Source of the DNA: an uncultured Gammaproteobacteria bacterium
GTDB taxonomy: Bacteria > Patescibacteriota > Patescibacteriia > Magasanikbacterales > GCA-002688135
Assembly (NCBI GenBank): GCA_964536205.1
Contig: CAZHVT010000002.1
Coordinates: 1,982 to 65,981, forward strand
Length of the DNA stretch: 64,000 bases
Direction: 5' to 3'
The notes beneath the pieces are model-generated. The model made no database searches. It saw only the letters and a program-made list of their open reading frames with translations, and was not told the origin of the DNA. This document shows positions 33,008 to 57,532 of this stretch, piece by piece (position 1 is the stretch's first letter; each line of letters begins with the position of its first letter). The position numbers and the translations under genes were made by a program.

Positions 33008-33073
33008 GTCATCCCGGCGTAGGCCGGGATCCACGTCTCTAGAAGCATGGATCCCGGCCTTCGCCGGGATGAC
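33008..33073. repeat. 70-bp-class palindromic repeat, copy A (GTCATCCCGGCGTAGGCCGGGATCCA-N14-TGGATCCCGGCCTTCGCCGGGATGAC)
   Basis: Read directly. Each arm contains an inner CCCGGC/GCCGGG hairpin. Confidence 0.7.
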
Positions 33074-33081
33074 ATTAAAAT

Positions 33082-34305
33082 ATGAAACACGTTGTTATTC
33101 TCGGAGGGGGGTTTGGCGGAGTGGAATGTTATCGAAAGTTAACTTCAATCGCAGGCAAAAAAGTCCGCATCACCCTCATCAACCGAAACAATTATTCACT
33201 CTTCACGCCCATGTTGCACGAAGTTGCAACAGGGTCTATTTCGCGTAAAGACATTGTGCAGCCATTGCGCGAGTTCGTGAAATGCTGCCACAATCGATTT
33301 ATTGAAGCGGAGGTCACAGGGATTGATGTCAAAAAGAAAATCGTCAAAACAAATGTGAAAGATGTAGAATATGATTTTTTGGTTGTCGCATTAGGAAGTA
33401 CAACAAACTTTTTCAATTGTGAGGGTGCAAAAGAATGTGCATTTCCGCTGAAGAATATGGATGATGCAATACGATTACGAAATCACATTTTAGAACAATA
33501 CGAAAAAGCAGCAGTCACAGAAGACAAAAAAGAACGCGAAGAACGCACATCATTTGTGATTGTAGGAGGGGGATTAACCGGAGTAGAAATGGCAGGGCAA
33601 CTCGCAGACTTTATTCATGAAATGCGAGAGCTGTATCCAGAAATTCCTAAATCAGTTCCAAAAATCACATTGGTTCACGCGGGAGAGAGAATTCTCCCGC
33701 GACTCGCACCTGTCTCAAGTCGTAAAGCAAAAAAAGTATTATCAAAAAAAGGAGTTGATTGTGAATTAGAAAATCGTGTGGTTCGCCTCACGCCAAAAGT
33801 AGTTGAGCTCAAGGATGGGACAAAAATTAAAACTCGGACAACGATCTGGGCAACAGGAATCAAATCTTCATTACCAGGAATTTTACCTGCAGCTCTATTA
33901 AGTGATCGTGGATTGATTGAGGTACAAAATGATTTAACATGTCCAGAATATCCAGAAATTTTTGGTGTGGGAGATGTGGTGGCTTGGATCGGCGAAAAAG
34001 CAAATCCTCCTTCAACTGCGCAAGCAGCAACACAAGCAGGAAATATTGCAGCACAAAACATTGTAGCAACTATAAAGAAAAAAGATAAAAAAGCATTTGA
34101 ATTTAAAAGCAAAGGAGATTTGGTGCCGATCGGCGATTGGTATGGTGTTGCAGAAATTGGCCGAATAAAATTTGGCGGGAAGCTTGCGTGGTGGATGCGT
34201 CGCACGATATTTATCCAACGTCTCTGGAGTTGGACAAATCGATTGAGAGTCGTTATAGATTGGACATTCAACATTTTCAGACCACGAGATACAAGCAAAT
34301 TATAA
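33082..34305 (+). CDS. FAD-dependent pyridine nucleotide-disulfide oxidoreductase, type II NADH dehydrogenase-like
   Basis: N-terminal Rossmann VVILGGGFGGVE and a second dinucleotide-binding site FVIVGGGLTGVE. Confidence 0.7.
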   Translation: MKHVVILGGGFGGVECYRKLTSIAGKKVRITLINRNNYSLFTPMLHEVATGSISRKDIVQPLREFVKCCHNRFIEAEVTGIDVKKKIVKTNVKDVEYDFLVVALGSTTNFFNCEGAKECAFPLKNMDDAIRLRNHILEQYEKAAVTEDKKEREERTSFVIVGGGLTGVEMAGQLADFIHEMRELYPEIPKSVPKITLVHAGERILPRLAPVSSRKAKKVLSKKGVDCELENRVVRLTPKVVELKDGTKIKTRTTIWATGIKSSLPGILPAALLSDRGLIEVQNDLTCPEYPEIFGVGDVVAWIGEKANPPSTAQAATQAGNIAAQNIVATIKKKDKKAFEFKSKGDLVPIGDWYGVAEIGRIKFGGKLAWWMRRTIFIQRLWSWTNRLRVVIDWTFNIFRPRDTSKL

Positions 34306-34325
34306 AAACCCGAAAGGGTTTTTTA
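34305..34325 (+). terminator. intrinsic terminator (AAAAACCCGAAAGGGTTTTT)
   Basis: Perfect hairpin flanked by A and T runs. Confidence 0.55.
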
Positions 34326-34371
34326 AAAAACAACGAAAAATGGTATAATACCTGTCTTTAAGAAAAAAGAT

Positions 34372-35727
34372 ATGTTCGGGAGGAAGAAAAAAAAGAATAC
34401 CCATTCACATGGGAAAAAGGGTGTGTGTCATGTGATAGCAGTTGATATGGGATATGGACATGAACGTCCGGCAAATGCACTCAAAGACATTTCTCATGAT
34501 GGTGAAATTTGGGTTGCAAACAATTACAAAGGGATTCCAGCCAAAGATAAAAAAATGTGGAAGCAGGGAAGAGAATTGTATGAAAAGATTTCTCGACTCA
34601 AGCCCATCCCGATTTTAGGACATTACATTTTCGAGGCAATGGATCGCATGCAACAAATTCCGCCGTTTTATCCACATCGAGATTTATCAGAACCTACTTT
34701 TCAACTCAAGCAGCAGCATAATTTTATTAAGAAGGGATTAGGAAAACATCTCATTGAAAAATTATCAGAAAACCCTAAGCCACTGGTTTGTACATTTCCA
34801 CTCCCAGCATTTGCTGCAGAAATGTACGATTATCCAGAGGATATTTATTTGGTGTGCACGGATTCTGATATTTCACGCGCATGGGTTTCAGTTAATGCGC
34901 ACACATCACGCATCAAATATTTTGCGCCAACCGGCCGTGTCGTAGAGCGTTTACAAATGTATGGTATTCGTCGAGAAAATATCACGCATACTGGTTTTCC
35001 GATGGCAAAATCATTAATCGGAGGCTCTGAATCAACAATCATTAAAAAAGATTTACAACGAAGATTAAACAATCTCGATCCACATCGACGCTTTTTTGAT
35101 CGATATTACTCAACACTCGAAAGAGAGTTTGGAGCAAAATTCTGCAAGCGAGTAAAACCCCAAGCACCAACCATCGCATTTGCAGTAGGAGGAGCAGGAG
35201 CACAACGAGCACTCGGTATCAACATCGCAAAAAGCCTCAAAAAACAAATCATAAAAAAACAAATCAAATTAATTTTGGTAGCAGGAGCACGAAAAGAAGT
35301 TGCATCATATTTCAATAGAGAACTCAAAAAACTCAAACTAGATAAAAAAGTTGAAGTACTCTACGAAAAAGAACGTCGCGCGTATTTCAGAAAATTCGAT
35401 GAGAAATTACGACAAGTTGATATTCTTTGGACAAAACCCTCCGAACTTTCATTTTACACAGGACTCGGAATTCCTATTGTTATGTCGCCATCAGTCGGCT
35501 CGCAAGAAGAATACAATCGATTATGGTTACAACAAGTTGGCGGAGGTATAGCACAGCACGATGAAACCTATACAAGTGAGTGGCTATTCGACTGGATCAA
35601 CTCCGGAGCACTCGCACGCATGGCTTGGAATGGATATATCGAAGCTCCAACACATGGCATTTATCGCATCGAAGACACCATGCTCGGCCGCCCATCAGAA
35701 CTCCCCCCACACCCGATGATTGTCTAA
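34372..35727 (+). CDS. putative GT-B glycosyltransferase (GT28, MGDG-synthase/UgtP-like N-terminal motif)
   Basis: VIAVDMGYGHERPANAL resembles the G-x-G-H motif of MGDG-synthase/MurG-like N-domains. Weak assignment. Confidence 0.4.
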   Translation: MFGRKKKKNTHSHGKKGVCHVIAVDMGYGHERPANALKDISHDGEIWVANNYKGIPAKDKKMWKQGRELYEKISRLKPIPILGHYIFEAMDRMQQIPPFYPHRDLSEPTFQLKQQHNFIKKGLGKHLIEKLSENPKPLVCTFPLPAFAAEMYDYPEDIYLVCTDSDISRAWVSVNAHTSRIKYFAPTGRVVERLQMYGIRRENITHTGFPMAKSLIGGSESTIIKKDLQRRLNNLDPHRRFFDRYYSTLEREFGAKFCKRVKPQAPTIAFAVGGAGAQRALGINIAKSLKKQIIKKQIKLILVAGARKEVASYFNRELKKLKLDKKVEVLYEKERRAYFRKFDEKLRQVDILWTKPSELSFYTGLGIPIVMSPSVGSQEEYNRLWLQQVGGGIAQHDETYTSEWLFDWINSGALARMAWNGYIEAPTHGIYRIEDTMLGRPSELPPHPMIV

Positions 35728-35767
35728 AAATCAAAGTCAGAGTTCGAACTCCGACTTTGATTTTTAA
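35728..35767 (+). terminator. long perfect hairpin terminator (ATCAAAGTC-AGAGTTCGAACTCC-GACTTTGAT + T5)
   Basis: Read directly. Confidence 0.55.
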
Positions 35768-35896
35768 AGGATATCCACAAAAGGGTTGTATTTGTTGGGT
35801 TTTATGAGTATACTGGGTGACAAGGTTAAATAAAGGTCAACCGTGTTAATAATATTTAGATTTAAAAAGTCACATATTCATCTAATTTAAGAGATT

Positions 35897-36178
35897 ATGG
35901 CAAAGTTCACAAAGACGCAGATGCATCAAGCATTGGCAGATTTAATGGGAACAAGTAAGAAGGAAGCGGGAGAATTTTGGGAGAAGTTCGTAGAACTCAC
36001 ACTCGACCAAGTAAAGGGTGAGGGCGAAATGCCATTGCCAGGATTGGGCAAATTGGTAAAGGTTCACCGAAAGGCACGCATGGGTCGAAACCCAGCAACA
36101 GGAGAATCAATCCAAATCGCTGCAAAGACAGTTGTAAAATTCCGCGTAGCAAAAGCTGCAAAGGAAGCAGTTCTCTAA
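35897..36178 (+). CDS. hup: HU family DNA-binding protein
   Basis: 93 aa with HU signature (GFGKF-like LPGLGKLVKVHRKARMGRNPATGESIQIAAKTVVKF). Confidence 0.8.
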   Translation: MAKFTKTQMHQALADLMGTSKKEAGEFWEKFVELTLDQVKGEGEMPLPGLGKLVKVHRKARMGRNPATGESIQIAAKTVVKFRVAKAAKEAVL

Positions 36179-36210
36179 GAAAAATATTGAACTAAAAAAG
36201 AGATGCGAAA

Positions 36211-37284
36211 GTGTCTCTTTTTTGTTATACTAATGTCATGTTTGGCAGAAGACGGCGAACAATTGGAGAAAAAATTCGTAGGCTTTTTTTCTATGCCATT
36301 CTTTTGGCAATCATCGGAAGTTTTATATTCTTTTTTGTCGGAAAAGCAGAGCCAGCTGAAAATATAAAATGGGGTGTGACATATGCAAAAGAATATTCAC
36401 AGTATTTGGGTTTAGATTGGAAAGAGATGTATCTAAGTATTTTAGATGATTTACAGGTTTCACATATTCGAATCGCAATCCCATGGAAAGATATTGAACG
36501 CGAGCAGGATGTATTTACCTTCGATGATTATCATTTCATGCTTCAGGCTGCCAAAGAGCGGGGTGTGAGCGTAGTGCCAGTTATTGGACATCGCACGCCA
36601 CGATGGCCAGAATGTCATACACCAGATTGGGCAAGTGCGTTACCAGAACGAGAGTTATCAGAACGCACGTTAATATTGATTGAGAAAGAAGTAAACGAAT
36701 TCAAGCAGTACGATAATATTGCGATGTGGCAAGTTGAAAATGAGCCGCTCGTAAAATTCTTTGGAAGGTGTCCTTCAATTGCAGCAGATTTGCTAGGTCG
36801 TGAAATTGAACGTGTAAAAAGTTTAGATGGACGACCTATCATGACAACAGATTCTGGGGAGTGGGGGAAATGGGGAAAGGCTTCGGCACAAGTAGATGTG
36901 TTAGGAGTCACTATGTATCGCTGGGTTTGGAATAAATTTCCAAAGTATTTCAAATATCCATTTCCACCGATTTTCTATGCGCGTAAAGCAAGTATGCTGA
37001 AAAAAGAAAATCCAAACCTACGTGTTATCGGATCAGAATTACAAATGGAACCGTGGCTGCCAGAGCGCTCATATAACGATGTGCCACTCGACGAACAGCA
37101 TATCACCATGAACCTTACACAGTTCAAAGAAAATATAGAATTCGCAAAAAAATCTGGTTTTGATGAGCATTATTTGTGGGGCGTTGAATGGTGGTATTGG
37201 ATGAAAGAAGTAAAAGGGGATGAGAGTTTCTGGGAAGAAGGAAAGAAATTATGGATTCAAAATGAGAGTGAAATCATTAACTGA
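36211..37284 (+). CDS. putative glycoside hydrolase (clan GH-A TIM barrel), membrane anchored
   Basis: N-terminal TM helix. WQVENEP (NEP catalytic acid/base motif) and a second conserved Glu region LQMEPW. Confidence 0.45.
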   Translation: MSLFCYTNVMFGRRRRTIGEKIRRLFFYAILLAIIGSFIFFFVGKAEPAENIKWGVTYAKEYSQYLGLDWKEMYLSILDDLQVSHIRIAIPWKDIEREQDVFTFDDYHFMLQAAKERGVSVVPVIGHRTPRWPECHTPDWASALPERELSERTLILIEKEVNEFKQYDNIAMWQVENEPLVKFFGRCPSIAADLLGREIERVKSLDGRPIMTTDSGEWGKWGKASAQVDVLGVTMYRWVWNKFPKYFKYPFPPIFYARKASMLKKENPNLRVIGSELQMEPWLPERSYNDVPLDEQHITMNLTQFKENIEFAKKSGFDEHYLWGVEWWYWMKEVKGDESFWEEGKKLWIQNESEIIN

Positions 37285-37290
37285 TAACTT

Positions 37291-38451
37291 ATGGGGAAGC
37301 GCATAAAAAAGCACGCAAAACGAATAAAAAACATCGCATATTTCGAAGCAGTTGCATTGATGGTCGGAGCAATTATCGGCGCGGGAGTATTGGGAATTCC
37401 ATATGTAGTAGCACAAGCCGGTGTAGCAATTGGCGCATTTTATATTGTGTTATTAGGAATCATCATCACCTTTGTACATTTGATGATAGGTGAAGTCACA
37501 CTCCGCACAAAAAAGAAATTGCAAATCCCCGGACTTGGTACAAAATACCTAGGGAAATTCGGTGGGGTACTCATTGGAATAAATTTCATGTTCTTTAGTT
37601 ACATGGCGATTTTGGCATACATCATAGCTTCAGGGGATGTATTGGCGAGTATCGCACCGATCTTATCGGAATTTGGATGGAGTATGGTATTTTTTGCTGC
37701 ACTTGCTGTTGTTGTATACATTGGGCTTGAGGGAGTAAAAGTCGCAGAATTAATTTTAGCCGGCATTTTATTTCTACTTCTGACATCGCTTGTTATATTT
37801 GGCATCCCACACATCGATCCATCAAATTTGGTAGTTGTGCAATTTGCAAATGTATTTCTTCCTTTTGGCGTCATTATGTTTGCACTCGGCGGTGTTTCGG
37901 CAATTCCAGAGCTTGAAAATCTCATGCCAAACTCCGGACGCAAAATAGAACGTACAATCATTCTTGGAACAGCACTTCCGATGATTCTCTATTTGTTATT
38001 CTCGATTGTGGTCGTGGGGGTAAATGGATTATCAACAACTGAAGTCGCAACTATCGGATTAGGAAATGCAATCGGCTCGCACATCGTAGTTTTAGGAAGT
38101 TTATTTGCAATCATCGCCATGGGCACAAGTTTCCTTACTATCGGATTGGCTCTGCGACGTGTGTATGAATGGGATTTAAAACTTCCTAAGATGATTGCGT
38201 GGGCACTTGCACTGGGAATCCCACTCGGGTTATATCTCATCGGCGCACGAGATTTCATTAAAACTCTCGGATTGGCTGGCGCTTTGGGTGGTGGATTAGA
38301 AGGGATTTTACTCGTATTAATCTTCTGGAACGCACGCAAAAAAGGGGATATACAACCACGCGGATTACATGTACACTTCCCAAAAACAATCGGATCGATC
38401 GTCATTGCAACATTTGCTTTGGGAATGATCGTAACGTTATTTTTCGCGTAA
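37291..38451 (+). CDS. amino acid transporter (APC superfamily / aromatic amino acid permease-like)
   Basis: About 11 TM helices. N-terminal motif AVALMVGAIIGAGVLGIPY is typical of the amino-acid permease family. Confidence 0.55.
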   Translation: MGKRIKKHAKRIKNIAYFEAVALMVGAIIGAGVLGIPYVVAQAGVAIGAFYIVLLGIIITFVHLMIGEVTLRTKKKLQIPGLGTKYLGKFGGVLIGINFMFFSYMAILAYIIASGDVLASIAPILSEFGWSMVFFAALAVVVYIGLEGVKVAELILAGILFLLLTSLVIFGIPHIDPSNLVVVQFANVFLPFGVIMFALGGVSAIPELENLMPNSGRKIERTIILGTALPMILYLLFSIVVVGVNGLSTTEVATIGLGNAIGSHIVVLGSLFAIIAMGTSFLTIGLALRRVYEWDLKLPKMIAWALALGIPLGLYLIGARDFIKTLGLAGALGGGLEGILLVLIFWNARKKGDIQPRGLHVHFPKTIGSIVIATFALGMIVTLFFA

Positions 38452-38452
38452 T

Positions 38453-39151: not shown

Positions 39152-39160
39152 CCCTAAAAT

Positions 39161-39733: not shown

Positions 39734-39799
39734 CCACATAATGCAAAAAATCCTGCTCTGGCGGGATTTTTTAATTGACAAAAAAATAAGATGAATATA

Positions 39800-40085
39800 A
39801 GATAACTCGGCACTTAAAAACAAGGTCCAGTTGGTCTGGCCTGGGGGCGTCCCAGTGGAGGGTTCGAATCCCTTGATGCCTTGGCTGAGCGATAGGTTGG
39901 TCTGTGGGAGCCTAGGTGGGAGAAGCGACCACAGGGTTTTTCGCAATTCCATAAGACGCTTCGTATTGAGATACCACCCTTTCCATCCGAAATGGTTGAG
40001 GAATAAGACGATCCATAAGGGTGTCCCTCAATGTTCAATCGGCTCTGTGCACCCCTCACATCTACGGATGAGAGGGGGTTTTTAT
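39800..40085 (+). ncRNA. candidate structured non-coding RNA (identity unresolved), ending in an intrinsic terminator (40052-40085)
   Basis: About 290 nt with no credible ORF on either strand, and locally GC-rich. Contains a tRNA-like T-arm GAGGG-TTCGAAT-CCCTT (39857-39873) and several GGG/CCC helices. The terminator is CCCCTCACATC-TACG-GATGAGAGGGG + T5. Confidence 0.25.
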
Positions 40086-40100
40086 TTACACACATAAGTA

Positions 40101-40129
40101 TTGACAATAAATACGCTTTATTTTATACT
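40101..40129 (+). promoter_or_regulatory. sigma70-like promoter TTGACA-N17-TATACT of the hrcA operon
   Basis: Consensus spacing. Immediately followed by CIRCE. Confidence 0.5.
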
Positions 40130-40130
40130 C

Positions 40131-40157
40131 TTAGCACTCACATAGGGAGAGTGCTAA
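40131..40157 (+). promoter_or_regulatory. CIRCE operator (TTAGCACTC-N9-GAGTGCTAA), HrcA binding site
   Basis: Perfect match to the CIRCE consensus inverted repeat. Confidence 0.8.
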
Positions 40158-40265
40158 TCGACGCGAAGCGTCGTCCTGAGCATAATGTTAGTGGAGTCGA
40201 AGGATCCCGAGAGGATTTCTCACGAGATCCTTCGACTAAAACGCTCAGGATGACGTGGTTTCTAT

Positions 40266-40943: not shown

Positions 40944-41454
40944 AACAAAAGACACGACCAACGAGTCATCCCGTAGTCGTACGGGATCCACCAAGAAGAA
41001 ATCAAAAAAAGATACTGAGCAAGAAAGAGATGAGTATTTATTGGGATGGAAAAGAGCATTAGCAGATTATGAAAATCTGAAAAAAGATCTACACATCCAG
41101 AAGCAACACGCGCGTGAATCTGTCACCGCAGATATCGCACAAGCATACCTCCCCATTCTCGATCATCTGCAATCCGCAACCAAAAACACACCAGATATTC
41201 CAGAAGCAAAAGAGTGGTTCACCGGTGTCGGATTCATTGCACAGCAATGCGCAGATGTACTCAAAGAATTCGGAGTAGAGCAAATTGAGGCTGAAGGAGA
41301 ATTCAATCCCGAACTACACGAAGCAGTAGGAATGGAAACACACGAAGAAATGGAGGACAATATAATCATTAAGCAAACACAAGCAGGATTTAAACTAAAG
41401 GATCGAATCTTGCGCCCAGCAAAAGTAATTGTAAATAAATTAAACAACGAATAA
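40936..41454 (+). CDS. grpE: nucleotide exchange factor GrpE
   Basis: Coiled-coil N-terminal part and C-terminus GFKLKDRILRPAKVIV. Overlaps hrcA by 8 nt. Residues 10-18 are encoded by a palindromic-repeat arm. Confidence 0.75.
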   Translation: MNKTKDTTNESSRSRTGSTKKKSKKDTEQERDEYLLGWKRALADYENLKKDLHIQKQHARESVTADIAQAYLPILDHLQSATKNTPDIPEAKEWFTGVGFIAQQCADVLKEFGVEQIEAEGEFNPELHEAVGMETHEEMEDNIIIKQTQAGFKLKDRILRPAKVIVNKLNNE

Positions 41455-41462
41455 CTAGAAGT

Positions 41463-41529
41463 GTTATTCCGTAGTCGTACGGAATCCATCTCGGGAAAAG
41501 GCATGGATCCCGTACGACTGCGGGATGAC
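41463..41529. repeat. palindromic repeat copy B, variant subfamily (GTTATTCCGTAGTCGTACGGAATCCA-N15-TGGATCCCGTACGACTGCGGGATGAC)
   Basis: Read directly. The right arm is the near-exact inverse of the arm inside grpE at 40965-40990. Confidence 0.6.
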
Positions 41530-41561
41530 AGTCTAACTAATCGCTAAACGCTAACAAATAT

Positions 41562-44802: not shown

Positions 44803-44810
44803 TACAAGTT

Positions 44811-44877
44811 GTCATCCCGGCGCAGGCCGGGATCCATCTTGATAAAAGGTATGGATCCCGGCCTGCGCCGGGATGAC
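44811..44877. repeat. palindromic repeat copy C (GTCATCCCGGCGCAGGCCGGGATCCA-N15-TGGATCCCGGCCTGCGCCGGGATGAC), perfect
   Basis: Read directly. Sits between the lipoprotein gene and dnaJ. Confidence 0.75.
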
Positions 44878-44888
44878 AATAAGAATAT

Positions 44889-48770: not shown

Positions 48771-48776
48771 GAAATT

Positions 48777-48902
48777 CGTAAAGCGTAACTCGTAATGCGT
48801 AACTCGGGAAATGTATCGCGAAGCGATAATTTATAGATCGTCGCCTTGCGACACTTTTTACGCTTTACGCTTTACGCTTTACGCTTTACGCATTACGAGT
48901 CA
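48777..48902. repeat. inverted heptamer-array element: (TAAAGCG/TAACTCG/TAATGCG/TAACTCG) ... core with ATCGCGAAGCGAT palindrome ... (CGCTTTA x4, CGCATTA, CGAGTCA)
   Basis: Read directly. Four perfect CGCTTTA tandem units at 48861-48888. The upstream array is the inverse complement. The core palindrome is shared with the element at 3297-3380. Confidence 0.6.
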
Positions 48903-48910
48903 CGAAAAAA

Positions 48911-49562: not shown

Positions 49563-49569
49563 AACCAAA

Positions 49570-49599
49570 AAGTCCTCTACGCGAGGACTTATTTTTTTA
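49570..49599. terminator. bidirectional intrinsic terminator (AAGTCCTC-TACGC-GAGGACTT + T7) shared with convergent lepA
   Basis: Read directly. Confidence 0.55.
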
Positions 49600-51393: not shown

Positions 51394-51452
51394 CTATCAT
51401 AAATGTTATGAGGAATCAGGTCAATGAGATGATTGACTGAAACGGAGAGAAT

Positions 51453-53150
51453 ATGATAAAAAAGACACTTATGTCAGCTCAAAAAGCAAAAAAGTTTGCA
51501 ATATATTCTGTAATCGCAGTGGGAGTTTTGGTGGTGTTTGCAGCAATGACAAATTTTCAAAGTTTGCGTGGAGGAGCGATAGCAAACCTATTACCCCAAG
51601 GAGTGCGTCACGGAATCAAAGACATGTTCTTTTTTATTCATGACGCACCATCATTAGCAAAAGCATCTCTATCAAAAGAAAAAATAGATCGTGTTGAAAT
51701 CACAATGGACCCAGAAGACTTGCGTGCAATCTATCAGATCGATACAGATCAAAAATATTTGGATCAAGGAAAACAGCGTCGCCCAGTAAAAGTTTCATTC
51801 AAGGGAAAAGAATACAATGCAGAAGTTCGATTGCGCGGTGAGACAAGTCCGCATTGGGCATATGAAAAAAAATCATGGCGGATTGAATTGGATAAAAAGA
51901 AAATTTTCGATGTAAGTACGCTAGAATTCATCGTCGCATCGGATCGATTCTATGTTGTCGAACAATTTAATAATGCGCGCGCGCGAAAGATGGGATTACT
52001 TGTTCCAGATTCGCAATACGCAAACCTCACCATCAACAACAAAGATTTCGGCGTCTATTTTGTATCAGAAAGAATTGCAGATGATTTTGTCACACGACAT
52101 GAGCTGCCAGAAGAAACAGTCATATATGGGGAAACAGATTTAAATCGAACAATTTATGAAAATGCAGGATTGTGGAAAATCAATGCAGGCGAAGAATCAG
52201 AAGTTGGATTCGGCCCGCTCATCACACTCATCGATGCAATGGATATTGAGGATGATGAGAAATTCTATAAGCGACTAAAAGAATTGGTAAATATCGAAAA
52301 GTTCGCACTTTGGAATGCGCATCAAATCCTCGCAGGATCAGAACATCAAGATTGGGCACACAACACACGCATCATGTATCGCCCTGACACAAACCTCATG
52401 TACTTCATTCCGTGGGATGTTGAATTCCAACCGCTCCATCGCGCGCGTCCGATCGATCGTCGTTACAATCCAATTATCAATCGACTCATCAACATTCCAG
52501 AATACCAGATCATGCGTGCACAGATTTTGTGGAGTATGGTTGGAAATGATGAGTGGGTGAGAATGGACAAAGAAATGTTCGATGAGATTGCAGGAGAAGT
52601 GACACCAGCCGCATATCGCGATCGAACAAAAGAACATACTAACAAAGAAGTCAAAGAGATGATTGCATATTATGATGGCGTGCGACAACAAAACATCAAT
52701 TATCTGCAAGAAGCATTACAACAAAACAGAGCACTCGCACATCTCACATGGAAAACAAATCAAAGAAAAACTGAAGGGAAGATGCGAATTTCAATTGATG
52801 ATGAATCGCCAGCTGCACTTGCGAGAATTGTATTTCCGCCAGAAGATGCACGTCATGATTGGAAACTATATAAAGATAATGGAGATGGAATACATAATAG
52901 ATTCGATCAGTTATTGGGAATATCACAAAACGGCGTGATAGAAATTAAAAAAGAAATCCCATTACACGCAATCAAATATGATGTGTGGCTTCACAATCGA
53001 TATGAACAATTTGAAACGAAACTTGGGCACTATGATTTCTTTCTGGTGAGAAGTGGATCACAGTTTAATACAGATGTCACACCTCGGATAACAGTTCAGA
53101 ATCTAGTAACACGAGAAAATCAAATCATAGAACCTGCTATTGGAATATGA
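51453..53150 (+). CDS. CotH kinase-family-like protein (putative), N-terminal TM anchor
   Basis: Weak resemblance to the CotH domain, strengthened by a downstream VTC-domain gene and a DUF4956-like membrane protein, which is a known CotH neighbourhood. Confidence 0.45.
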   Translation: MIKKTLMSAQKAKKFAIYSVIAVGVLVVFAAMTNFQSLRGGAIANLLPQGVRHGIKDMFFFIHDAPSLAKASLSKEKIDRVEITMDPEDLRAIYQIDTDQKYLDQGKQRRPVKVSFKGKEYNAEVRLRGETSPHWAYEKKSWRIELDKKKIFDVSTLEFIVASDRFYVVEQFNNARARKMGLLVPDSQYANLTINNKDFGVYFVSERIADDFVTRHELPEETVIYGETDLNRTIYENAGLWKINAGEESEVGFGPLITLIDAMDIEDDEKFYKRLKELVNIEKFALWNAHQILAGSEHQDWAHNTRIMYRPDTNLMYFIPWDVEFQPLHRARPIDRRYNPIINRLINIPEYQIMRAQILWSMVGNDEWVRMDKEMFDEIAGEVTPAAYRDRTKEHTNKEVKEMIAYYDGVRQQNINYLQEALQQNRALAHLTWKTNQRKTEGKMRISIDDESPAALARIVFPPEDARHDWKLYKDNGDGIHNRFDQLLGISQNGVIEIKKEIPLHAIKYDVWLHNRYEQFETKLGHYDFFLVRSGSQFNTDVTPRITVQNLVTRENQIIEPAIGI

Positions 53151-53878
53151 AACATCCGCGCATCCCACACGAATTCCAACGCTACGAATTCAAATACGTC
53201 ATGCCAGATTACATGACCGCCACGATCAAAAAATCGCTGGAACATTTTGGTATGATCAAGGATCCGATGGTGCCAGATGGAAAAAACAGTTACGACATCA
53301 CAAGTTTGTATTTTGATAATGAAAAACTTCTTGCATATCATTCAAAACTTGCCGGCGAGAGAAATCGATACAAACTCCGCTTACGATATTATGGCGATGT
53401 GAAAGATGCACCACAACATTCATTCGCAGAAATCAAAAGTAAGTACAACAGTGTTATTCACAAACGCCGTGAAAGAATTTCAGCAGAAGATGTAATTGCA
53501 CTATGCAATGGATTAGTACCATCACACAAAGACGATGCAGAAACATTCCAACTATTTGTTGCACGCATGAAAAAAAATAGCATGACACCCCGCATGCTCG
53601 TGCGATACAAACGAGAGCCATTGATTTGGAATAAAGATAAGAGATTGCGCATCACCTTTGATTCACACTTACAATCTCGCTCGTCAGAAAATCTATATGA
53701 TGCCGGCATGTTTCATGATTATATGAAACATCGTACTGTGATGGAGCTCAAATTCACCGGATGGGCACCCGGATGGGTCGGGCAAATCATACGAGAACAC
53801 AGACTTGACCGAGTCGCCTCATCCAAGTATTGTCTAGCGGTACGAGACGCATCTCGCGTCGGTCGCATTAGAATCTAA
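53147..53878 (+). CDS. VTC-domain (polyphosphate polymerase-like, CYTH-like fold) protein
   Basis: N-terminal HEFQRYEFKYVMPD and an R/K-rich pattern (RYKLRLRYYGD ... KRRERI) typical of bacterial VTC-domain proteins. Confidence 0.55.
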   Translation: MKHPRIPHEFQRYEFKYVMPDYMTATIKKSLEHFGMIKDPMVPDGKNSYDITSLYFDNEKLLAYHSKLAGERNRYKLRLRYYGDVKDAPQHSFAEIKSKYNSVIHKRRERISAEDVIALCNGLVPSHKDDAETFQLFVARMKKNSMTPRMLVRYKREPLIWNKDKRLRITFDSHLQSRSSENLYDAGMFHDYMKHRTVMELKFTGWAPGWVGQIIREHRLDRVASSKYCLAVRDASRVGRIRI

Positions 53879-53885
53879 TTACCTT

Positions 53886-53952
53886 GTCATCCCGGCGTAG
53901 GCCGGGATCCATCATGTTAATCAGCATGGATTCCGGCCTACGCCGGAATGAC
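53886..53952. repeat. palindromic repeat copy D (GTCATCCCGGCGTAGGCCGGGATCCA-N15-TGGATTCCGGCCTACGCCGGAATGAC)
   Basis: Read directly. Confidence 0.7.
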
Positions 53953-53961
53953 AAATAAAAT

Positions 53962-54636
53962 ATGTTAGAAGACATTTTTTTCTCCGCCGGCCCAGTCGAT
54001 GTAAACGTAGTAATCATGTCAATAAGTGTGATTATCGCGTTTGTATTATCGATGTTCATCGCATGGGTCTATAAACGAACTCACAGAGGATTATCATATT
54101 CTCCATCATTTGTTGCAAGTCTGGTCATGATGGGGCCGATTTTGTCAGTCATCATGATGATCGTTGGAACATCTGTCGCACGAGCATTTACGGTATTTGG
54201 AGCATTTACACTCATCCGTTTCAGAACAGCTATCAAAGATACACGAGACATCGCTTTCGTATTATGGATTTTGATGGCTGGACTTGGTGTAGGAACACAG
54301 AACCACATCATAGCTATCGTCGCGACATTGCTCATCAGTGTAGCTGTCTGGTGGTTATCAGTTTCTCGTTTTGGAGCAGTATCACGATTCGACTACGTTG
54401 TGACATTGGTAACTGCGGAACAAACAGACATGTACAAAGAGATTTTCGATCGTTTCGCAAAAAATGTATCTGTCCTATCATCTACTATTCAGAAAGATCG
54501 CAGCAGATCAGAAATGAGTGTTCAAATTACTCTCAAAGATGACACACAGTTGAAGGAACTGATTACAGCACTTAACAAAGAAGAAGCCATTCAAGAAGTT
54601 ATCGTCAACAGAACGCAAGGCGACTTGGAATTCTAA
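53962..54636 (+). CDS. DUF4956-like polytopic membrane protein
   Basis: Four or five TM helices then a soluble C-terminal domain. Assignment rests on gene context with CotH/VTC. Confidence 0.4.
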   Translation: MLEDIFFSAGPVDVNVVIMSISVIIAFVLSMFIAWVYKRTHRGLSYSPSFVASLVMMGPILSVIMMIVGTSVARAFTVFGAFTLIRFRTAIKDTRDIAFVLWILMAGLGVGTQNHIIAIVATLLISVAVWWLSVSRFGAVSRFDYVVTLVTAEQTDMYKEIFDRFAKNVSVLSSTIQKDRSRSEMSVQITLKDDTQLKELITALNKEEAIQEVIVNRTQGDLEF

Positions 54637-55775
54637 TGATCACCTATAACACAGTTTTGAAAAAAAGCACCACGCGGCTCATGCTGCTCGGTGTTATTTT
54701 TTTATTGGCAGGATGCGGTTCAAATACAAGGCAACTAAGTACATACATGTTGGATGAAGAACCATCTGGCACGCCGCCGCGCATTGAGCGAGAATTCAAA
54801 TTATCGATGCAAGGTGAAGGCGCAGAAACACATGATCCCGAAACAATCATCGCAGTTGTATCTCATGGATTATCTGAACTCATCAACGAAAAAAAATTAT
54901 CCGCGCAGAATATTACAAATAAAGAATATTACATTGATGATGCAAGCAAAGCATTTGTATTTCGCGATACATATTATGACAACAACAAAAAAGATCTAGC
55001 TGCACGCGCAATTTCATATCGACTACGATACAGATTCAATGATGTAGAAAAATATGAAAAACATGAGCGCTATCCAGAGGATCCGGCATTTTTCCCAAAC
55101 CGCGCAGAGATTCAAGCCAAAACAGATCGTGTTGAAATTGGTGATGGGTTTTCAACAGTGAAAGAAGCGCGATTCGAATTCAGAAATGCATCAGATCCAT
55201 TTTCCAAAAAAAATAAAGCTCCAAAATCTCCCTGGAAATATTCACAATTTTCAAAATATCCCGAAACAGGTCAATTTCAAAAATACACAATGTGGCCAAC
55301 ATATCATGTCGTTGAATCATTAGAGGAAGAAATAGGTAGAAGCGGGAGTTTATATGTCCGACCATCAACAGTTCTTCTGACTCGTCGCGATCGAGTGCAT
55401 CTCAACATGAAAACTCCGTGGGGTTCAGGTCCAAACCCAGAACAAGTTTTTATTATTTCACTCGACACAGTTCAAGTTTTTGACGATTTCTATCATGAGT
55501 ATCTTCTCGGAAAACAAAACAGACCCGAACCAGTCGGATCATACATAGAAATGGAAATCGAGTTCGAGCGAAACATTTCAACAGAAATCGATGATGTCAT
55601 CAAAAAGGGAAGCAAGAAAAAAAAGAAAAAAGCTGAAGATGCTCGAGATGCATTTTTAAAAGATCAGAAAGAAATTGTAACCAAACTCGAATCTCAACTT
55701 GCACAACTAAACATAACTCTAACCCCAGTCACGCAAAGCAAATATGGACAAGCTATAAACCTCCTAAACAGATAG
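54636..55775 (+). CDS. hypothetical lipoprotein, possibly a second CYTH/VTC-like domain
   Basis: Lipobox LLAGCGSN. IEREFKLSMQ resembles the EIERKF start of CYTH domains. Confidence 0.4.
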   Translation: MITYNTVLKKSTTRLMLLGVIFLLAGCGSNTRQLSTYMLDEEPSGTPPRIEREFKLSMQGEGAETHDPETIIAVVSHGLSELINEKKLSAQNITNKEYYIDDASKAFVFRDTYYDNNKKDLAARAISYRLRYRFNDVEKYEKHERYPEDPAFFPNRAEIQAKTDRVEIGDGFSTVKEARFEFRNASDPFSKKNKAPKSPWKYSQFSKYPETGQFQKYTMWPTYHVVESLEEEIGRSGSLYVRPSTVLLTRRDRVHLNMKTPWGSGPNPEQVFIISLDTVQVFDDFYHEYLLGKQNRPEPVGSYIEMEIEFERNISTEIDDVIKKGSKKKKKKAEDARDAFLKDQKEIVTKLESQLAQLNITLTPVTQSKYGQAINLLNR

Positions 55776-55788
55776 TCATCATAGAACG

Positions 55789-55814
55789 GTCATCCTGGCA
55801 CAGGCTGGGATGAC
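55789..55814. repeat. degenerate single arm of the palindromic repeat family (GTCATCCTGGCACAGGCTGGGATGAC)
   Basis: Read directly. Lies between convergent genes. Confidence 0.35.
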
Positions 55815-55837
55815 AATTTTGGTCACGATGACAATTC

Positions 55838-57463
55838 TTACAAACCTCCTGCATCAGTAATATCGTGTGGGAGGATTTTTATTTTGATGAGTTTGTCACG
55901 GACAACGCGGACAAAGACATGCATTTCATGAGACTTAAGAATGAGCCCAACAAAGACATACGTAAGACATCCAGCCAATCCAACTGCACACGCTTGAATA
56001 AAGATCCCCATTCCTGTGGTCATATCAACAAGTGACGAAATAGGGGATTTGAGAATCTGCATCACTAACGCCATAGCAAGCGCTGCAACGGTCATTTTAA
56101 AAAGTGAAACTAAGATTCTACGACCATCCAATGATTTTGTTTTGGGAACTAGCATTGTCCATAAAAGTGCGACTTGTACTAAGGCACCAACACTCACACC
56201 CAACGCAATACCTTGCACGCCAATCACGCGAGACGCAAGATACGCAACAAACAAAACAATCGTTTCCGCAAGAATCGCAATCACAACAGGAGTTTTGGTA
56301 TCCTCAAATGCATAAAATCCTCGCACCAGAAGATGAACCAAACCAAGTGCGGCAAATCCAACTGCAAACATCGCAAGTGTATCAAATGTCATGACGGTAT
56401 CTTGCCAATCAAACGCACCAGTTCCCAAAAGCACACGAACAATCTGCGCACGCAAAATCACAAACAAAACTGTAGAAGGGATCATCAAGAATAATATTTG
56501 TCGAACCGTACTTGAAAAACTTTTTGTAAATGTCTCTTGTGTTTTTTCCATCGCACCTTCAGACAGGGTGGGGAAGGCAGCAACAGCATATGAAACCGCA
56601 AAAATCCCAATCGGCACAAATGCAATATTATGTGCCAACTGAAATGCAGAAATCGATCCAGCTGAAAGTGTAGATGTGATTGCGGTCAGTGCAATCAATG
56701 AGACTTGACTCACCGCCAATCCTAAGGTACGAGGTGCCATCAAATACAAAATACGTTTCACCTCATGTGTAAGTTTCAGTGAAAATTGTAAGGTAAATCC
56801 CTGTCCGCGCAAAGCATAATATTGAATCCCTGCATGTAAAAGCGCGCCAAGCACCACACCCCAAGCCAATCCAATAACCCCCATCTTTGAATAAAAAAAT
56901 GTCGCCCCAACAATAATTCCTCCATTATATAAAATCGGAGCAAGCGCAAACACAAAAAATTGTCGAAGAGATTGCAATGCGCCGCCAAGCACAGCAGAAA
57001 ATCCAAGAAAGAAAGGTGATAAAAACATCACGCGCGTAAACGCGACAGCTTGAATATGTGCAGCTTCAGAAAAACCCGGAGCAACAAGTGACATTAATGG
57101 ATCAGCAAAAATAAAAAGAAAAACTGCAGCAATCGCCATCACAATAGAACCCAAACTCAAAACAGTTTGCACAATCGGCCACGAAGCCTTCAGCCCATTC
57201 ATTTTACGAAATTTCGTAAACACCGGAATGAATCCAGCAGAAAGCGCACCCAAAATAATCAAATTAAATAAAAGATCAGGAATTTTAAATGCCGCATAAT
57301 ACGCATCCAAAACCTCACCTGCCCCAAACTGATGCGCGAAAATACGATCACGAATCAATCCAAGAATACGACTTAAAAAAGTAGCACCCGCCATGAGGAC
57401 GGCCGCTCCGGTGATGGAGGTTGAGATGTGGTTCAGGAGTCTTTTTGGCATATTCATTGTCAT
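55838..57463 (-). CDS. murJ: lipid II flippase MurJ (MviN)
   Basis: 14-TM protein. N-terminal motif FLSRILGLIRDRIFAHQFGAGEVLDAYYAAFKIPDLLFNL is characteristic of MurJ. Confidence 0.75.
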   Translation of the reverse strand: MTMNMPKRLLNHISTSITGAAVLMAGATFLSRILGLIRDRIFAHQFGAGEVLDAYYAAFKIPDLLFNLIILGALSAGFIPVFTKFRKMNGLKASWPIVQTVLSLGSIVMAIAAVFLFIFADPLMSLVAPGFSEAAHIQAVAFTRVMFLSPFFLGFSAVLGGALQSLRQFFVFALAPILYNGGIIVGATFFYSKMGVIGLAWGVVLGALLHAGIQYYALRGQGFTLQFSLKLTHEVKRILYLMAPRTLGLAVSQVSLIALTAITSTLSAGSISAFQLAHNIAFVPIGIFAVSYAVAAFPTLSEGAMEKTQETFTKSFSSTVRQILFLMIPSTVLFVILRAQIVRVLLGTGAFDWQDTVMTFDTLAMFAVGFAALGLVHLLVRGFYAFEDTKTPVVIAILAETIVLFVAYLASRVIGVQGIALGVSVGALVQVALLWTMLVPKTKSLDGRRILVSLFKMTVAALAMALVMQILKSPISSLVDMTTGMGIFIQACAVGLAGCLTYVFVGLILKSHEMHVFVRVVRDKLIKIKILPHDITDAGGL

Positions 57464-57532
57464 CCCGGCGCAGGCCGGGATCCATTGTCCGGATCATTAC
57501 AACGCATGGATCCCGGCCTGCGCCGGGATGAC
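57459..57532. repeat. palindromic repeat copy E (GTCATCCCGGCGCAGGCCGGGATCCA-N22-TGGATCCCGGCCTGCGCCGGGATGAC), perfect arms
   Basis: Read directly. Sits between murJ and the GT2 gene on the minus strand. Confidence 0.75.

Follow-up and report, generated by a model that had tools for sequence, protein, structure and literature searches.

Inverted repeats in the window

The window, by which we mean the whole 64,000-nucleotide stretch of DNA analysed, contains five REP dimers with inverted arms, a lone unit within grpE and a solo, seemingly collapsed hairpin (none expected by chance), together with a related second palindromic family, at 40170-40254, that the initial annotation had overlooked. These elements, and one lying just beyond the window, are:

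33006..33075, no strand: head-to-head dimer with arms at 33008-33033 (plus) and 33048-33073 (minus) and a 14-nt spacer, between a DM13-domain gene (stop 32978) and an NDH2-type oxidoreductase gene (start 33082); RNA fold -57.9 kcal/mol, z = -11.4
40170..40254, no strand: second-family GTC-tagged palindrome (GTCGTCCTGAGC...GTCGAAGGATCCC versus GGATCTCGTG...GCTCAGGATGAC), flanked by the CIRCE operator and the start of hrcA; RNA fold -50.5 kcal/mol, z = -8.1
40965..40990, plus strand: single REP unit belonging to the CCGTA-GTCG-TACGG subfamily, in frame at GrpE codons 10-19 (...ESSRSRTGST...)
41463..41529, no strand: variant-subfamily dimer, head-to-head, separating grpE (stop 41454) from dnaK (start 41562), its left arm with GTT in place of GTC plus a compensated T-A pair; fold -45.8 kcal/mol, z = -8.4
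44809..44879, no strand: perfect head-to-head dimer (29/29) with the 13-nt spacer CTTGATAAAAGGT, between orf136 (stop 44802) and dnaJ (start 44889); RNA fold -69.6 kcal/mol, z = -14.0, DNA fold -42.8 kcal/mol
53884..53954, no strand: head-to-head dimer between a VTC-domain gene (stop 53878) and a DUF4956 gene (start 53962), its right arm with a compensated C-G to T-A change
55789..55814, plus strand: solo hairpin with an 11-bp stem (GTCATCCTGGC-ACAG-GCTGGGATGAC), followed by AATTTTGG and the end-fragment GATGACAA; fold -18 kcal/mol, z = -5.8
57457..57534, no strand: perfect head-to-head dimer (29/29) with a 20-nt spacer, between the minus-strand genes for a GT2 glycosyltransferase (stop 57536) and murJ (start at about 57451-57457); fold -66.7 kcal/mol
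Just beyond the window, in frame: dimer inside a U5-methyltransferase gene, encoding VIPAQAGIQDSKGMDPGLRRDD

Searching the window with the 26-mer arm returned eight matches at 0-2 mismatches (0.00 expected in shuffles) and recovered the four main copies reported initially, and both the variant dimer and the lone variant arm in the grpE reading frame are likewise confirmed. A structure-based scan, for GTC followed by an 8-bp stem, a 4-nt loop and CCA, found 10 strict units (0.02 in shuffles), and about 14 units lie within the 73 kb of scaffold read (window plus adjoining sequence). Each 26-nt arm consists of a (T)GTC tag (TGTC in nine strict units, AGTC in the tenth), an 8-bp stem beginning with AT (ATCCCGGC/GCCGGGAT or a compensated variant), a loop of the form GYAG, GAAG or GTCG, and a CCA tail, which is present in all 10. 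The five dimers are all head-to-head, with the tags outermost, measure 66-78 bp and have spacers of about 12-13 nt, except for one of 20 nt.

The family had been described as perfect palindromes, which is true of only two of the five dimers (44809-44879 and 57457-57534), the other three being 86-93% complementary. In a covariation test of the hairpin, 99.2% of the cells were paired and four of the eight pairs had changed on both sides, a score reached by none of 500 shuffles. This supports the single-arm hairpin, kept paired by compensatory changes, as the conserved unit, rather than the long palindrome as such.

All five dimers lie between co-directional genes (DM13|NDH2, grpE|dnaK, orf136|dnaJ, VTC|DUF4956 and, on the minus strand, GT2|murJ), the gene orientation having been misread where they were called often convergent. 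They start 6-9 nt past a stop codon and end 8-11 nt ahead of the next start, or 32 nt ahead of dnaK in the case of the grpE|dnaK dimer. The sole copy between convergent genes (a 379-aa ORF and murJ) is the hairpin at 55789..55814, a genuine site but not the degenerate arm it was taken for: it is a complete hairpin, and looks like a dimer collapsed via deletion between its internal direct repeats. Spurious reading frames through the repeats, with IPAFAGMT-type peptides, are also real (the ORF at 33006 translates to LSSRRRPGSTSLEAWIPAFAGMT), and the repeats are a practical warning for annotation and assembly.

Assignment to the CGTC-1 family of REPs

CGTC-1 REPs are defined by an unpaired 5' tag CGTC (TGTC and CCTC being accepted variants), an 8-bp stem with A-T complementary residues at positions one and two, a 4-nt loop and a short unpaired 3' tail fitting CCA; they form mostly head-to-head dimers, among which homodimers predominate, and are dispersed in many copies through their host genomes (Di Nocera, De Gregorio and Rocco, BMC Genomics 2013, PMC3733652). 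Because the tag, the A-T/T-A-starting stem, the loop, the tail and the homodimer orientation found in the window each agree with this definition, the window repeats are CGTC-1-type REPs arranged as head-to-head dimers. The likeness extends to their location, downstream of ORF 3' ends where the neighbouring genes are co-directional, with occasional in-frame genic copies, and to the peptides VIPAxAGI, IPAFAGMT and SSRxRxGS: the read-through peptides WIPAFAGMT and SSRRRPGS of the window match published entries from S. wittichii, S. alaskensis and R. conorii, the peptides published for CGTC-1 copies including VIPAKAGI...IPAFAGMT and SSRRRPGS (supplement of PMC3733652). Unlike the published CGTC-1 REPs, those described here reside in a Patescibacteria/Parcubacteria host with an AT-rich, reduced genome, have short spacers of about 13 nt and are linked, in sister genomes, to a flanked GIY-YIG gene.

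The initial reading as a REP/MITE-like element family recalling Rickettsia palindromic elements is therefore correct and, by tag, stem, loop, tail and dimer layout, can be narrowed to CGTC-1; it holds because RPE-6 of Rickettsia conorii and dRS3 of Neisseria are themselves CGTC-1 members, RPE-4 being CGTC-4 (PMC3733652). Like the Rickettsia elements, the window repeats include a palindromic unit in frame within a protein-coding gene of a reduced genome: the grpE unit leaves the ORF undisrupted, falls in the disordered N-terminal tail (the Pfam GrpE domain begins at residue 19) and has no counterpart in two of the three sister lineages. In contrast to RPE-1 (100-150 bp, mostly intragenic), however, the window copies are mostly intergenic dimers, the grpE unit being the only intragenic one in the window, plus the methyltransferase-gene dimer just outside. 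Classical MITEs combine terminal inverted repeats with a target-site duplication and arise from an IS that has lost its interior. Inverted arms are present in the window repeats, but neither the five filled sites examined nor four comparisons of filled with empty sites show a consistent duplication, and the ORF-bearing counterpart encodes a GIY-YIG nuclease, not an IS transposase.

Host and distribution

The GrpE relatives of the window protein belong to Parcubacteria/Patescibacteria. The phyla listed for CGTC REPs are Proteobacteria, Chlorobi, Bacteroidetes, Spirochaetes and Thermotogae (PMC3733652), and Parcubacteria (CPR) is a host phylum unlisted for CGTC-1 repeats in that 2013 survey. A restriction of the copies to this region would have weakened the mobile-element interpretation; the data do not refute it, the scaffold carrying one more copy just beyond the window and the 29-mer matching at least 120 metagenome stretches, the 26-mer pattern at least 119 genome stretches. 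Among the 119 genome stretches listed, for which the central 8 nt of the pattern were unconstrained, these bases nearly always read GC-NNNN-GC, GTC is preceded by C in 181 of the 217 units, and the dimers are oriented head-to-head in 59 cases, tail-to-tail in 8 and head-to-tail in 11. The window has a GC content of about 41%, compared with 60-70% for most REP-bearing loci, and its REP unit is identical to proteobacterial copies at 26 of 26 positions. A known repeat family is thus found in an unexpected host, where GC-rich, proteobacteria-identical repeats within a reduced, AT-rich CPR genome make a clear marker of cross-phylum transfer.

Presence and absence at orthologous sites

The REP units behave as discrete insertions, because orthologous sites in three sister lineages are either occupied or cleanly empty. 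The grpE N-terminal unit is present in P0003 (locus L127) and missing from P0004 (L125-126) and P0005 (L131), while at grpE|dnaK the site is filled in L127, has diverged in L125 and is empty, with a 10-nt gap, in L131. The orf136|dnaJ site is empty in L125 (2-nt gap), the GT2|murJ site is empty in L355 (2-nt gap) and holds unrelated sequence in L350, and at the VTC|DUF4956 site L350 carries a dimer of the other subfamily. Conversely, three REP-GIY-YIG cassettes near uvrB and uvrA in L350 are all absent from the window genome, where their sites are REP-free.

These comparisons bear on a possible host role. The hairpins are predicted to be very stable (RNA, -45.8 to -69.6 kcal/mol for four of the dimers); inserted dimers would be co-transcribed in operons and fold into RNA hairpins of 29-34 bp, which, judging from position and folding, probably act as 3'-end or processing barriers, just as the solo hairpin, the top-ranked terminator-like site, probably acts as a terminator. 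One could accordingly regard the repeats as host-selected structural or regulatory elements (mRNA stabilisers, attenuators, terminators or protein-binding sites), kept because they are useful and not currently mobile, and their placement right behind stop codons in operons, including both sides of dnaK in the hrcA-grpE-dnaK-dnaJ cluster, the high stability of the hairpins, the compensatory maintenance of stem pairing and the terminator-like rank of the solo hairpin in its region are all consistent with this. We nevertheless consider it quite improbable, as sister genomes of 75-85% identity differ in where they carry repeats (sites being empty, occupied or filled by the other subfamily), copies occur in frame within coding regions, and the dimers have no T-tract. 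A host-selected role is in itself compatible with mobility.

REP-bounded GIY-YIG genes

In the sister genomes, the repeats also enclose a gene. The typical cassette consists of a REP(+), a 13-nt leader, the ATG of a GIY-YIG (UPF0213-like) gene of about 100 aa, and a REP(-) within which the stop codon lies. Four such cassettes were found in Parcubacteria (L196, L350, L355 and L356): REP(+) stands 13 nt ahead of the ATG in three, an expanded-loop REP standing about 2 nt ahead of it in the fourth; REP(-) supplies the stop codon in all four; and both flanks belong to one stem subfamily in three. The encoded proteins match Pfam GIY-YIG, have UPF0213 proteins (1zg2, 1ywl) as nearest solved structures and are invariant at Y7, Y18, R28, H32, E65 and N84, which we take to be the expected GIY-YIG catalytic positions. 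In domain and invariant residues they resemble GIY-YIG homing endonucleases and the structure-specific Slx1/UPF0213 (YhbQ-like) nucleases, and in their multiple copies and presence/absence polymorphism the genes resemble free-standing homing endonuclease genes and other selfish nuclease genes; unlike these enzymes, however, the partner lacks a separate DNA-binding domain, resides in neither an intron nor an intein and is bounded by inverted REPs. The domain, at about 100 aa, comes without an obvious DNA-binding module.

The association recurs well outside Parcubacteria. Among 31 IMG/VR loci chosen only by GIY-YIG homology, 18 have a correctly oriented CGTC REP within 120 nt, nine of them on both sides, against a background of 40 other units over 218 kb; in one group of these loci the tags point towards the gene. 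In three 40-kb neighbourhoods, nine units fall within the 2.1 kb beside the gene and eight in the other 118.7 kb, an enrichment of about 64-fold. Among 12 replicon loci of cultured bacteria, five enclose the gene between head-to-head REPs of the host's own CGTC type, three are less regular (complete dimers on both sides in Azospirillum, REPs at uneven distances in Neisseria and Sinorhizobium), two are flanked by other GTCAT-tagged palindromes, and two have no REPs within 150 nt. Enclosure recurs in Rhizobium, Shinella, Sphingobium, Novosphingobium and Aeromonas, and the gene-carrying taxa overlap the CGTC hosts of PMC3733652 (A. lipoferum, S. meliloti, N. aromaticivorans, Neisseria). Protein similarity did not follow REP stem type.

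CGTC REPs have been reported without a dedicated transposase (PMC3733652), which makes the flanked GIY-YIG gene a testable candidate. Enclosed as it is in Parcubacteria, cultured Proteobacteria and uncultured contigs, the gene is a concrete candidate for the long-missing enzyme that would move CGTC REPs, and is directly testable in culturable hosts such as Neisseria, Azospirillum and Sphingomonas.

The dimers share several traits with REPIN-RAYT systems (Bertels and Rainey, 2011; Nunvar et al., 2010), namely two inverted REP hairpins that combine into one larger hairpin, a non-autonomous doublet, a single-gene nuclease partner flanked by cognate REPs and the absence of an evident target-site duplication. 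That they are in fact REPIN-like elements moved by a RAYT (an IS200/IS605-type Y1 HUH transposase), with an incidental GIY-YIG link, would explain the doublet architecture, which is that of REPINs, but is very unlikely: the tag is (C/T)GTC, not GTAG, and the flanked gene encodes a GIY-YIG nuclease of about 100 aa, not a Y1 HUH transposase; no Y1_Tnp occurs among the precomputed Pfam matches of called genes at positions 1 to about 72,850 of a scaffold that continues for about 190 kb more; RAYT genes occur in CGTC hosts but none is flanked by CGTC units (Di Nocera et al., PMC3733652); and the GIY-YIG association is far above background.

The association of REPs and gene gives no direction by itself, as the nuclease gene might just ride along as a passenger, or might home into REPs. 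The GIY-YIG genes would then be independent, homing-type selfish genes that land in REP dimers, the REPs spreading otherwise or being old and no longer mobile, and the window dimers would be vacant targets. REPs are targets of other mobile elements, such as insertion sequences of the IS110/IS1111 family, and the arrangements in A. lipoferum, where the gene lies between two complete dimers and not within one, in N. gonorrhoeae, with REPs on both sides, and in the IMG/VR loci whose tags face the gene, fit such homing. We find it unlikely all the same. Each of the three Parcubacteria cassette sites is free of REPs in the genome without the gene, so that gene and flanking REPs together form the indel. 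The REP(-)-borne stop codon of all four cassettes and the recurrent leader of three point to an integrated unit; in three, the two flanks share one stem subfamily.

Proposed mechanism and origin of the ORF-less dimers

The overall explanation that we favour, and consider fairly probable, is that the window's CGTC-1 dimers are non-autonomous derivatives of the REP-bounded GIY-YIG cassette, mobilised, as we infer, by its nuclease. Most likely, the nuclease would recognise the REP hairpin when this is extruded from a duplex or lies exposed in single-stranded DNA, and would nick it at the tagged base, whereupon repair or replication would copy or remove the REP-bounded unit without target-site duplication; ORF-less dimers would use the nuclease in trans. 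Neither a duplication nor a conserved target sequence could be defined for the insertions. More tentatively, and with some doubt, we propose that CGTC REPs in general, including dRS3 and RPE-4/RPE-6, may be the non-autonomous half of a mobile system previously unrecognised in the open-access literature, whose autonomous unit would be the GIY-YIG cassette of about 350 bp and which would have moved from Proteobacteria to CPR and decayed there into the ORF-less dimers of the window. Such a system would be the GIY-YIG counterpart of the RAYT "REPtron". The Parcubacteria GIY-YIG protein is 70-73% identical to Bradyrhizobium-type proteins, and, on sequence similarity, the REPs and the nuclease gene probably entered this lineage together from Proteobacteria.

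Tblastn found no GIY-YIG gene in the window, nor is there one in the adjoining 8.9 kb (73 kb of scaffold), and the window units are all ORF-less; hence either the elements are fossils or, should they still be active, their enzyme must be encoded elsewhere. The window genome appears to have lost three nuclease copies still found in a sister genome. The window dimers look like ORF-less derivatives of the cassette: in four of the five the spacer, at 12-13 nt, matches in length the 13-nt leader found in three of the cassettes, and the spacers resemble the leaders in sequence as well (5.67 of 13 identities versus 3.68 in shuffles, p = 2e-4). The second family offers the same relation, with the ORF-less palindrome at 40170-40254 in the window and an ORF-bearing copy in L356 (5090-5480), where the inverted repeats of this family flank a second-type GIY-YIG gene.

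Repeat units in the window

The 26-mer GTCATCCCGGCGYAGGCCGGGATCCA has eight matches in the window at up to 2 mismatches, which form four inverted pairs, against 0.00 in dinucleotide-preserving shuffles. A scan that asked for structure alone (GTC, then an 8-bp stem in which 7 or more positions pair, a 4-nt loop and CCA) returns 10 units against 0.02 in shuffles, adding a lone unit within grpE and the right arm of a variant pair, whose left arm carries GTT instead of GTC. All copies listed in the initial annotation, i.e., the four main ones, the variant pair and the lone grpE arm, are thereby recovered, while the one described there as a degenerate arm is really a complete solo hairpin, GTCATCCTGGC-ACAG-GCTGGGATGAC, the form that would be expected of a dimer (two units head-to-head, tags outside) after loss of all that lies between its internal direct repeats.

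Repeat elements of the window
33008-33073, inverted pair of GTCATCCCGGCGYAGGCCGGGATCCA
40965-40990, lone unit within grpE
41463-41529, variant pair
44811-44877, inverted pair of GTCATCCCGGCGYAGGCCGGGATCCA
53886-53952, inverted pair of GTCATCCCGGCGYAGGCCGGGATCCA
55789-55814, solo hairpin
57459-57532, inverted pair of GTCATCCCGGCGYAGGCCGGGATCCA

Each arm has the anatomy (T)GTC - ATCCCGGC - GYAG - GCCGGGAT - CCA and is itself a hairpin with flanking tags. In an inverted-repeat search the arms grow to 29-34 nt, and the earlier description as perfect palindromes holds for two pairs (29/29) but not for the others, which are 88-93% complementary. As RNA, each dimer is predicted to form a single hairpin of -46 to -70 kcal/mol (z -8 to -14), and as DNA the 44.8-kb dimer reaches -42.8 kcal/mol, with single arms alone at about -9 to -10 kcal/mol.

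The conserved unit is the single hairpin. In an alignment of 26 units from the window and sister genomes, stem cells are paired in 99.2% of cases and four of the eight pairs show changes on both sides: pair 3 goes from C-G to T-A, and the CCGTA...TACGG subfamily has TA/AT where the others have GC/CG; the covariation score was reached in none of 500 shuffles, and the signal was gone when partners were slid by 1-3 columns. In two window dimers, a compensated change in one arm spares that arm's own hairpin and weakens the pairing between arms.

A CRISPR or tandem array was ruled out, as the copies are dispersed inverted pairs. At gathering thresholds, Rfam gave no match on the repeats and reported tRNAs and a SAM (S-box) riboswitch only, the latter at 20405-20504, directly upstream of the S-adenosylmethionine synthetase gene (20546-21604). 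Short partial element ends (GATGACAA, GGGAATGACAAGATAAA and TTGTCATCCCGGC) were also seen stacked beside full units, at window 55816-55836, at 14900-14950 of L350 (a sister Parcubacteria locus), and upstream of GIY-YIG gene 1 in L350 and in a second relative, L196; these may have been left behind by cleavage, repair or insertion events that recurred at tagged ends.

Identity as CGTC-1 REPs

The window repeats match the published CGTC-1 REP family, which is defined by a stem of 8 bp whose first two pairs are A-T, a loop of 4 nt and a CCA tail, and in which head-to-head dimers with the tags outside prevail and homodimers predominate (Di Nocera, 2013; PMC3733652). The match extends to the encoded peptides: Sphingomonas wittichii CGTC-1 dimers encode VIPAKAGI...IPAFAGMT and S. 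alaskensis units encode SSRRRPGS (supplement of PMC3733652), and the window peptides are the same. The REP/MITE-like reading of the initial annotation is thus both upheld and sharpened, with tag, stem, loop, tail, dimers and peptides all in agreement. Its parallel with Rickettsia palindromic elements also stands, given that R. conorii RPE-6 is CGTC-1 and RPE-4 is CGTC-4, just as Neisseria dRS3 is CGTC-1, and that in-frame intragenic copies are documented for CGTC REPs (PMC3733652). Patescibacteria are not among the five phyla listed as CGTC hosts (PMC3733652), and the element is a new member of a known family in a new host phylum.

Copies elsewhere, on which the mobile-element interpretation had been made to depend, are numerous. 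The pattern GTCATCCCG-N8-CGGGATCCA, with the 8 inner bases free and one genome per species, matches at least 119 genome stretches, the window 29-mer occurs in at least 120 metagenome-contig stretches, most of them GC-rich, and a further dimer lies on the window's own scaffold. In nearly all genome matches listed the free bases read GC-NNNN-GC, so that the stem is completed around a variable loop, and GTC is preceded by C in 181 of the 217 units among them. Most hosts among the matches listed belong to Sphingomonadales, Xanthomonadales/Lysobacterales, Burkholderiales and Hyphomicrobiales; CPR and other lineages account for a few. Unlike the dispersed dimers seen elsewhere, CGTC-1 units form head-to-tail tandem arrays with a 36-nt period in an uncultured gammaproteobacterium MAG (L063, 2673-3730). 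The CGTC-1 pattern is also present in 61 IMG/VR stretches (viral-contig loci L258-L318), and the GIY-YIG gene described below in 31 IMG/VR loci; these may be prophages, misclassified host fragments or phages that help to move the system between hosts.

Host genome

A 264-kb metagenome scaffold contains the window sequence unchanged, and independent assemblies (ENA, JGI and Logan) have it at 100% identity. By annotation, the closest relatives of its GrpE come from Parcubacteria or Patescibacteria group bacteria, and the short proteins and tightly packed genes fit a CPR genome. The GC content of the repeat unit is about 65%, that of the window about 41%; an assembly artefact or proteobacterial contamination was ruled out, as the independent assemblies agree and copies are found at the orthologous sites of sister MAGs. 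An apparent 14-nt strain polymorphism in the 57.5-kb dimer was likewise dismissed, being an N-run in one assembly. Several assemblies of relatives (L127-L130, L122-L124) break in or beside REP dimers around grpE and dnaK and, together with that N-run, these breaks indicate that short-read assembly of such genomes suffers from the repeats.

Position relative to genes

All five dimers lie between co-directional genes, namely DM13/NDH2-type oxidoreductase, grpE/dnaK, orf136/dnaJ, VTC/DUF4956 and GT2/murJ (minus strand); the placement between often convergent genes suggested in the initial annotation applies to the solo hairpin alone. Each dimer starts 6-9 nt past the upstream stop codon, and the distance from its end to the following start is 8-11 nt for four of the five and 32 nt for the grpE/dnaK dimer. 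We considered the dimers as intrinsic terminators and rejected this, since they have no T-tract and none was flagged; only the solo hairpin was, as the top terminator-like site in its region. Read-through ORFs with IPAFAGMT-type peptides do exist, translation from 33006 through the element reading LSSRRRPGSTSLEAWIPAFAGMT. The lone grpE unit makes up codons 10-19 of the 172-aa GrpE, whose Pfam GrpE domain begins at residue 19, and between the unit and the conserved core there is no in-frame ATG or GTG, the sole alternative start being a TTG at the core edge.

Occupied and empty orthologous sites

Three sister lineages, with 73-87% nucleotide identity to the window in flanking genes, allow filled and empty sites to be compared.

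Occupancy of orthologous sites (L and P numbers denote loci and proteins of sister or relative Parcubacteria)
grpE N-terminus: window, unit; present in P0003/L127, absent from P0004/L125-126 and P0005/L131
grpE/dnaK: window, variant dimer; L127 occupied, L125 with a diverged dimer, L131 empty with a 10-nt gap
orf136/dnaJ: window, dimer; L125 empty with a 2-nt gap
GT2/murJ: window, dimer; L355 empty with a 2-nt gap, L350 with unrelated sequence
VTC/DUF4956: window, main-subfamily dimer; L350 with a dimer of another subfamily
223-aa ORF/GT2: window, empty; L350 with a single unit

Site occupancy is all-or-none among sister genomes, and the units behave as discrete insertions. This includes the proposed insertion into grpE, where comparison of the N-termini finds the unit missing in two sister lineages and kept in the third. 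The further dimer on the scaffold, about 5.2 kb past the window end (18405-18470 of L358, the scaffold beyond the window; window-equivalent about 69201-69266), lies in frame within a RumA/TrmA-like U5-methyltransferase gene, where VIPAQAGIQDSKGMDPGLRRDD is added immediately ahead of the SAM-binding motif VLDLYCGSG; in a sister genome, too, a dimer occupies this place (L350, 19477-19542).

GIY-YIG cassettes in sister genomes

An AT-rich match to the window 29-mer, L196, is orthologous to window 60595-61167. Before uvrB, where the window has a 38-nt REP-free gap, L196 carries an insert composed, in order, of a REP fragment, a REP(+), 13 nt, a 103-aa ORF (MDKYFVYIVASKKNGTLYIGVTNDVMRRAYEH...) with its TGA stop within the following REP(-), and a further REP of the variant subfamily. 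The ORF encodes a GIY-YIG domain protein whose nearest solved structures are UPF0213 proteins. In L350 (sister MAG GCA_002688135.1) three such REP-flanked genes cluster around uvrB and uvrA.

GIY-YIG genes of L350
Gene 1: main-stem-type REPs on both sides
Gene 2: CCGTA-GCCG-TACGG REPs on both sides, close to the subfamily of the window's grpE region
Gene 3: ATTCCCGC-type REPs, the upstream one with an expanded loop

Genes 1 and 2 have REP(+) 13 nt ahead of their ATG, and the stop codon falls within REP(-) in all three. L355, from a third lineage, shows this architecture too, again at the site before uvrB. REPs are often found in uvrA, uvrB and other repair genes (PMC3733652). The window-genome counterparts of the three L350 cassette sites (window 60757-60796 and 62823-62851; L358 13733-13754) all lack the gene and are REP-free. 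One could take this association to mean that the nuclease gene homes into pre-existing REPs; this main rival reading is weakened by the three Parcubacteria sites, where genomes without the gene are also without REPs.

The family to which these proteins belong is a large one, of 5013 clusters at 50% identity (E <= 1e-10). Y7, Y18, R28, H32, E65 and N84 are invariant in the alignment and, judging by their expected fold position, we take them to be the GIY-YIG catalytic set.

Generality of the association

Among 31 IMG/VR loci picked by GIY-YIG homology alone, 18 have a CGTC-type REP within 120 nt of the gene in the expected orientation, nine of them on both sides, and the same loci hold 40 other units in 218 kb; several that fail this strict scan have longer, GTCAT-tagged palindromes in the flanks. 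Conversely, seven REP-selected loci contain a GIY-YIG gene, with a unit within 140 nt in six. In PLSDB, tblastn located the gene in Azospirillum lipoferum 4B, Sinorhizobium meliloti, Rhizobium, Shinella, Sphingobium, Novosphingobium aromaticivorans, Neisseria gonorrhoeae, Aeromonas and others, which overlap the CGTC hosts named by Di Nocera (PMC3733652).

We inspected 12 replicon loci from this set. In five, REPs of the CGTC type proper to the host enclose the gene head-to-head; in Rhizobium and Shinella this type has a 9-bp stem and a 5-nt loop, and in Aeromonas the stop codon is again within REP(-). Three have less regular flanks: Azospirillum has complete dimers on both sides of a gene located between sufB and sufC, while Neisseria has dRS3-type and Sinorhizobium CCTC-tagged REPs, both at uneven distances. 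Two (Planktothrix and Spirosoma) are flanked by other GTCAT-tagged palindromes, and two have no flanking repeat within 150 nt. Over three 40-kb neighbourhoods, the 2.1 kb around the gene hold nine units, compared with eight in all of the other 118.7 kb. Across phyla, cognate REPs physically enclose a GIY-YIG gene in which the residues at the catalytic positions are conserved.

Di Nocera (PMC3733652) writes that CGTC elements "seem lacking a dedicated transposase" and reports no RAYT gene with CGTC units on its flanks; our own search for a RAYT found no Y1 transposase in about 73 kb of the window genome. Among open-access papers and preprints we found none linking GIY-YIG/UPF0213 genes with REPs, REPINs, RAYTs, MITEs or dRS3, and no newer open-access work on CGTC REP transposases; one preprint names REPs and CPR together, each once only. 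We propose that the GIY-YIG nuclease acts on REP hairpins and drives their copying or excision, that ORF-less dimers may be mobilised in trans, and that dimers, when transcribed, could act as RNA barriers. Several results count against the nuclease's role: there is no GIY-YIG nuclease gene in the 73 kb of the window genome examined, the arrangement of gene and REPs varies in some taxa, similarity of the GIY-YIG proteins gives no signal of co-variation with REP stem type at the resolution available, and four comparisons of filled with empty sites revealed no definable target-site duplication. Should the link between GIY-YIG genes and these REPs hold, the CGTC superfamily would gain a candidate enzyme that is both concrete and testable.

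Probable ORF-less derivatives and probable origin

The spacers of four of the five window dimers are 12-13 nt long and are followed by ATGGATCC, and in three of four cassettes REP(+) is followed by a 13-nt leader and ATG, extended to ATGGAT in one. Spacers and leaders share 5.67 identities per 13 positions, against 3.68 in composition-matched shuffles (p = 2e-4, in a small sample). A second palindrome family shows the same pattern: the element at 40170-40254 of the window, which lies between CIRCE operator and hrcA, is an ORF-less version of the inverted repeats found on both sides of a second type of GIY-YIG gene in L356, another relative. On these two grounds, the window elements are probably ORF-less, MITE-like derivatives of REP-bounded GIY-YIG cassettes. 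Upstream of hrcA-grpE-dnaK (window 40101-40157), a near-consensus promoter, TTGACA-17-TATACT, precedes a perfect CIRCE, TTAGCACTC-N9-GAGTGCTAA. Each of the four lineages compared has a GTCAT-tagged palindrome in the CIRCE-hrcA stretch, no two of them from the same family, and the stretch looks like an insertion hot spot.

The Parcubacteria GIY-YIG proteins are 70-73% identical to Bradyrhizobium-type proteins, and the REP unit is identical over 26/26 positions to units in Sphingomonas, Dyella and others. Given these identities and a repeat GC content far above that of the host, the simplest reading is that REPs and GIY-YIG gene were jointly acquired by horizontal transfer from Proteobacteria.

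Other repeats of the window

Unrelated heptamer-based repeats were also noted in intergenic regions: arrays of the TTACGCT/TTACGAG type form 61-nt and 31-nt inverted repeats (48773-48904 and 3297-3380), and ACGCTAA repeats lie upstream of dnaK (41545-41560), with similar simple repeats before dnaK in sister loci.
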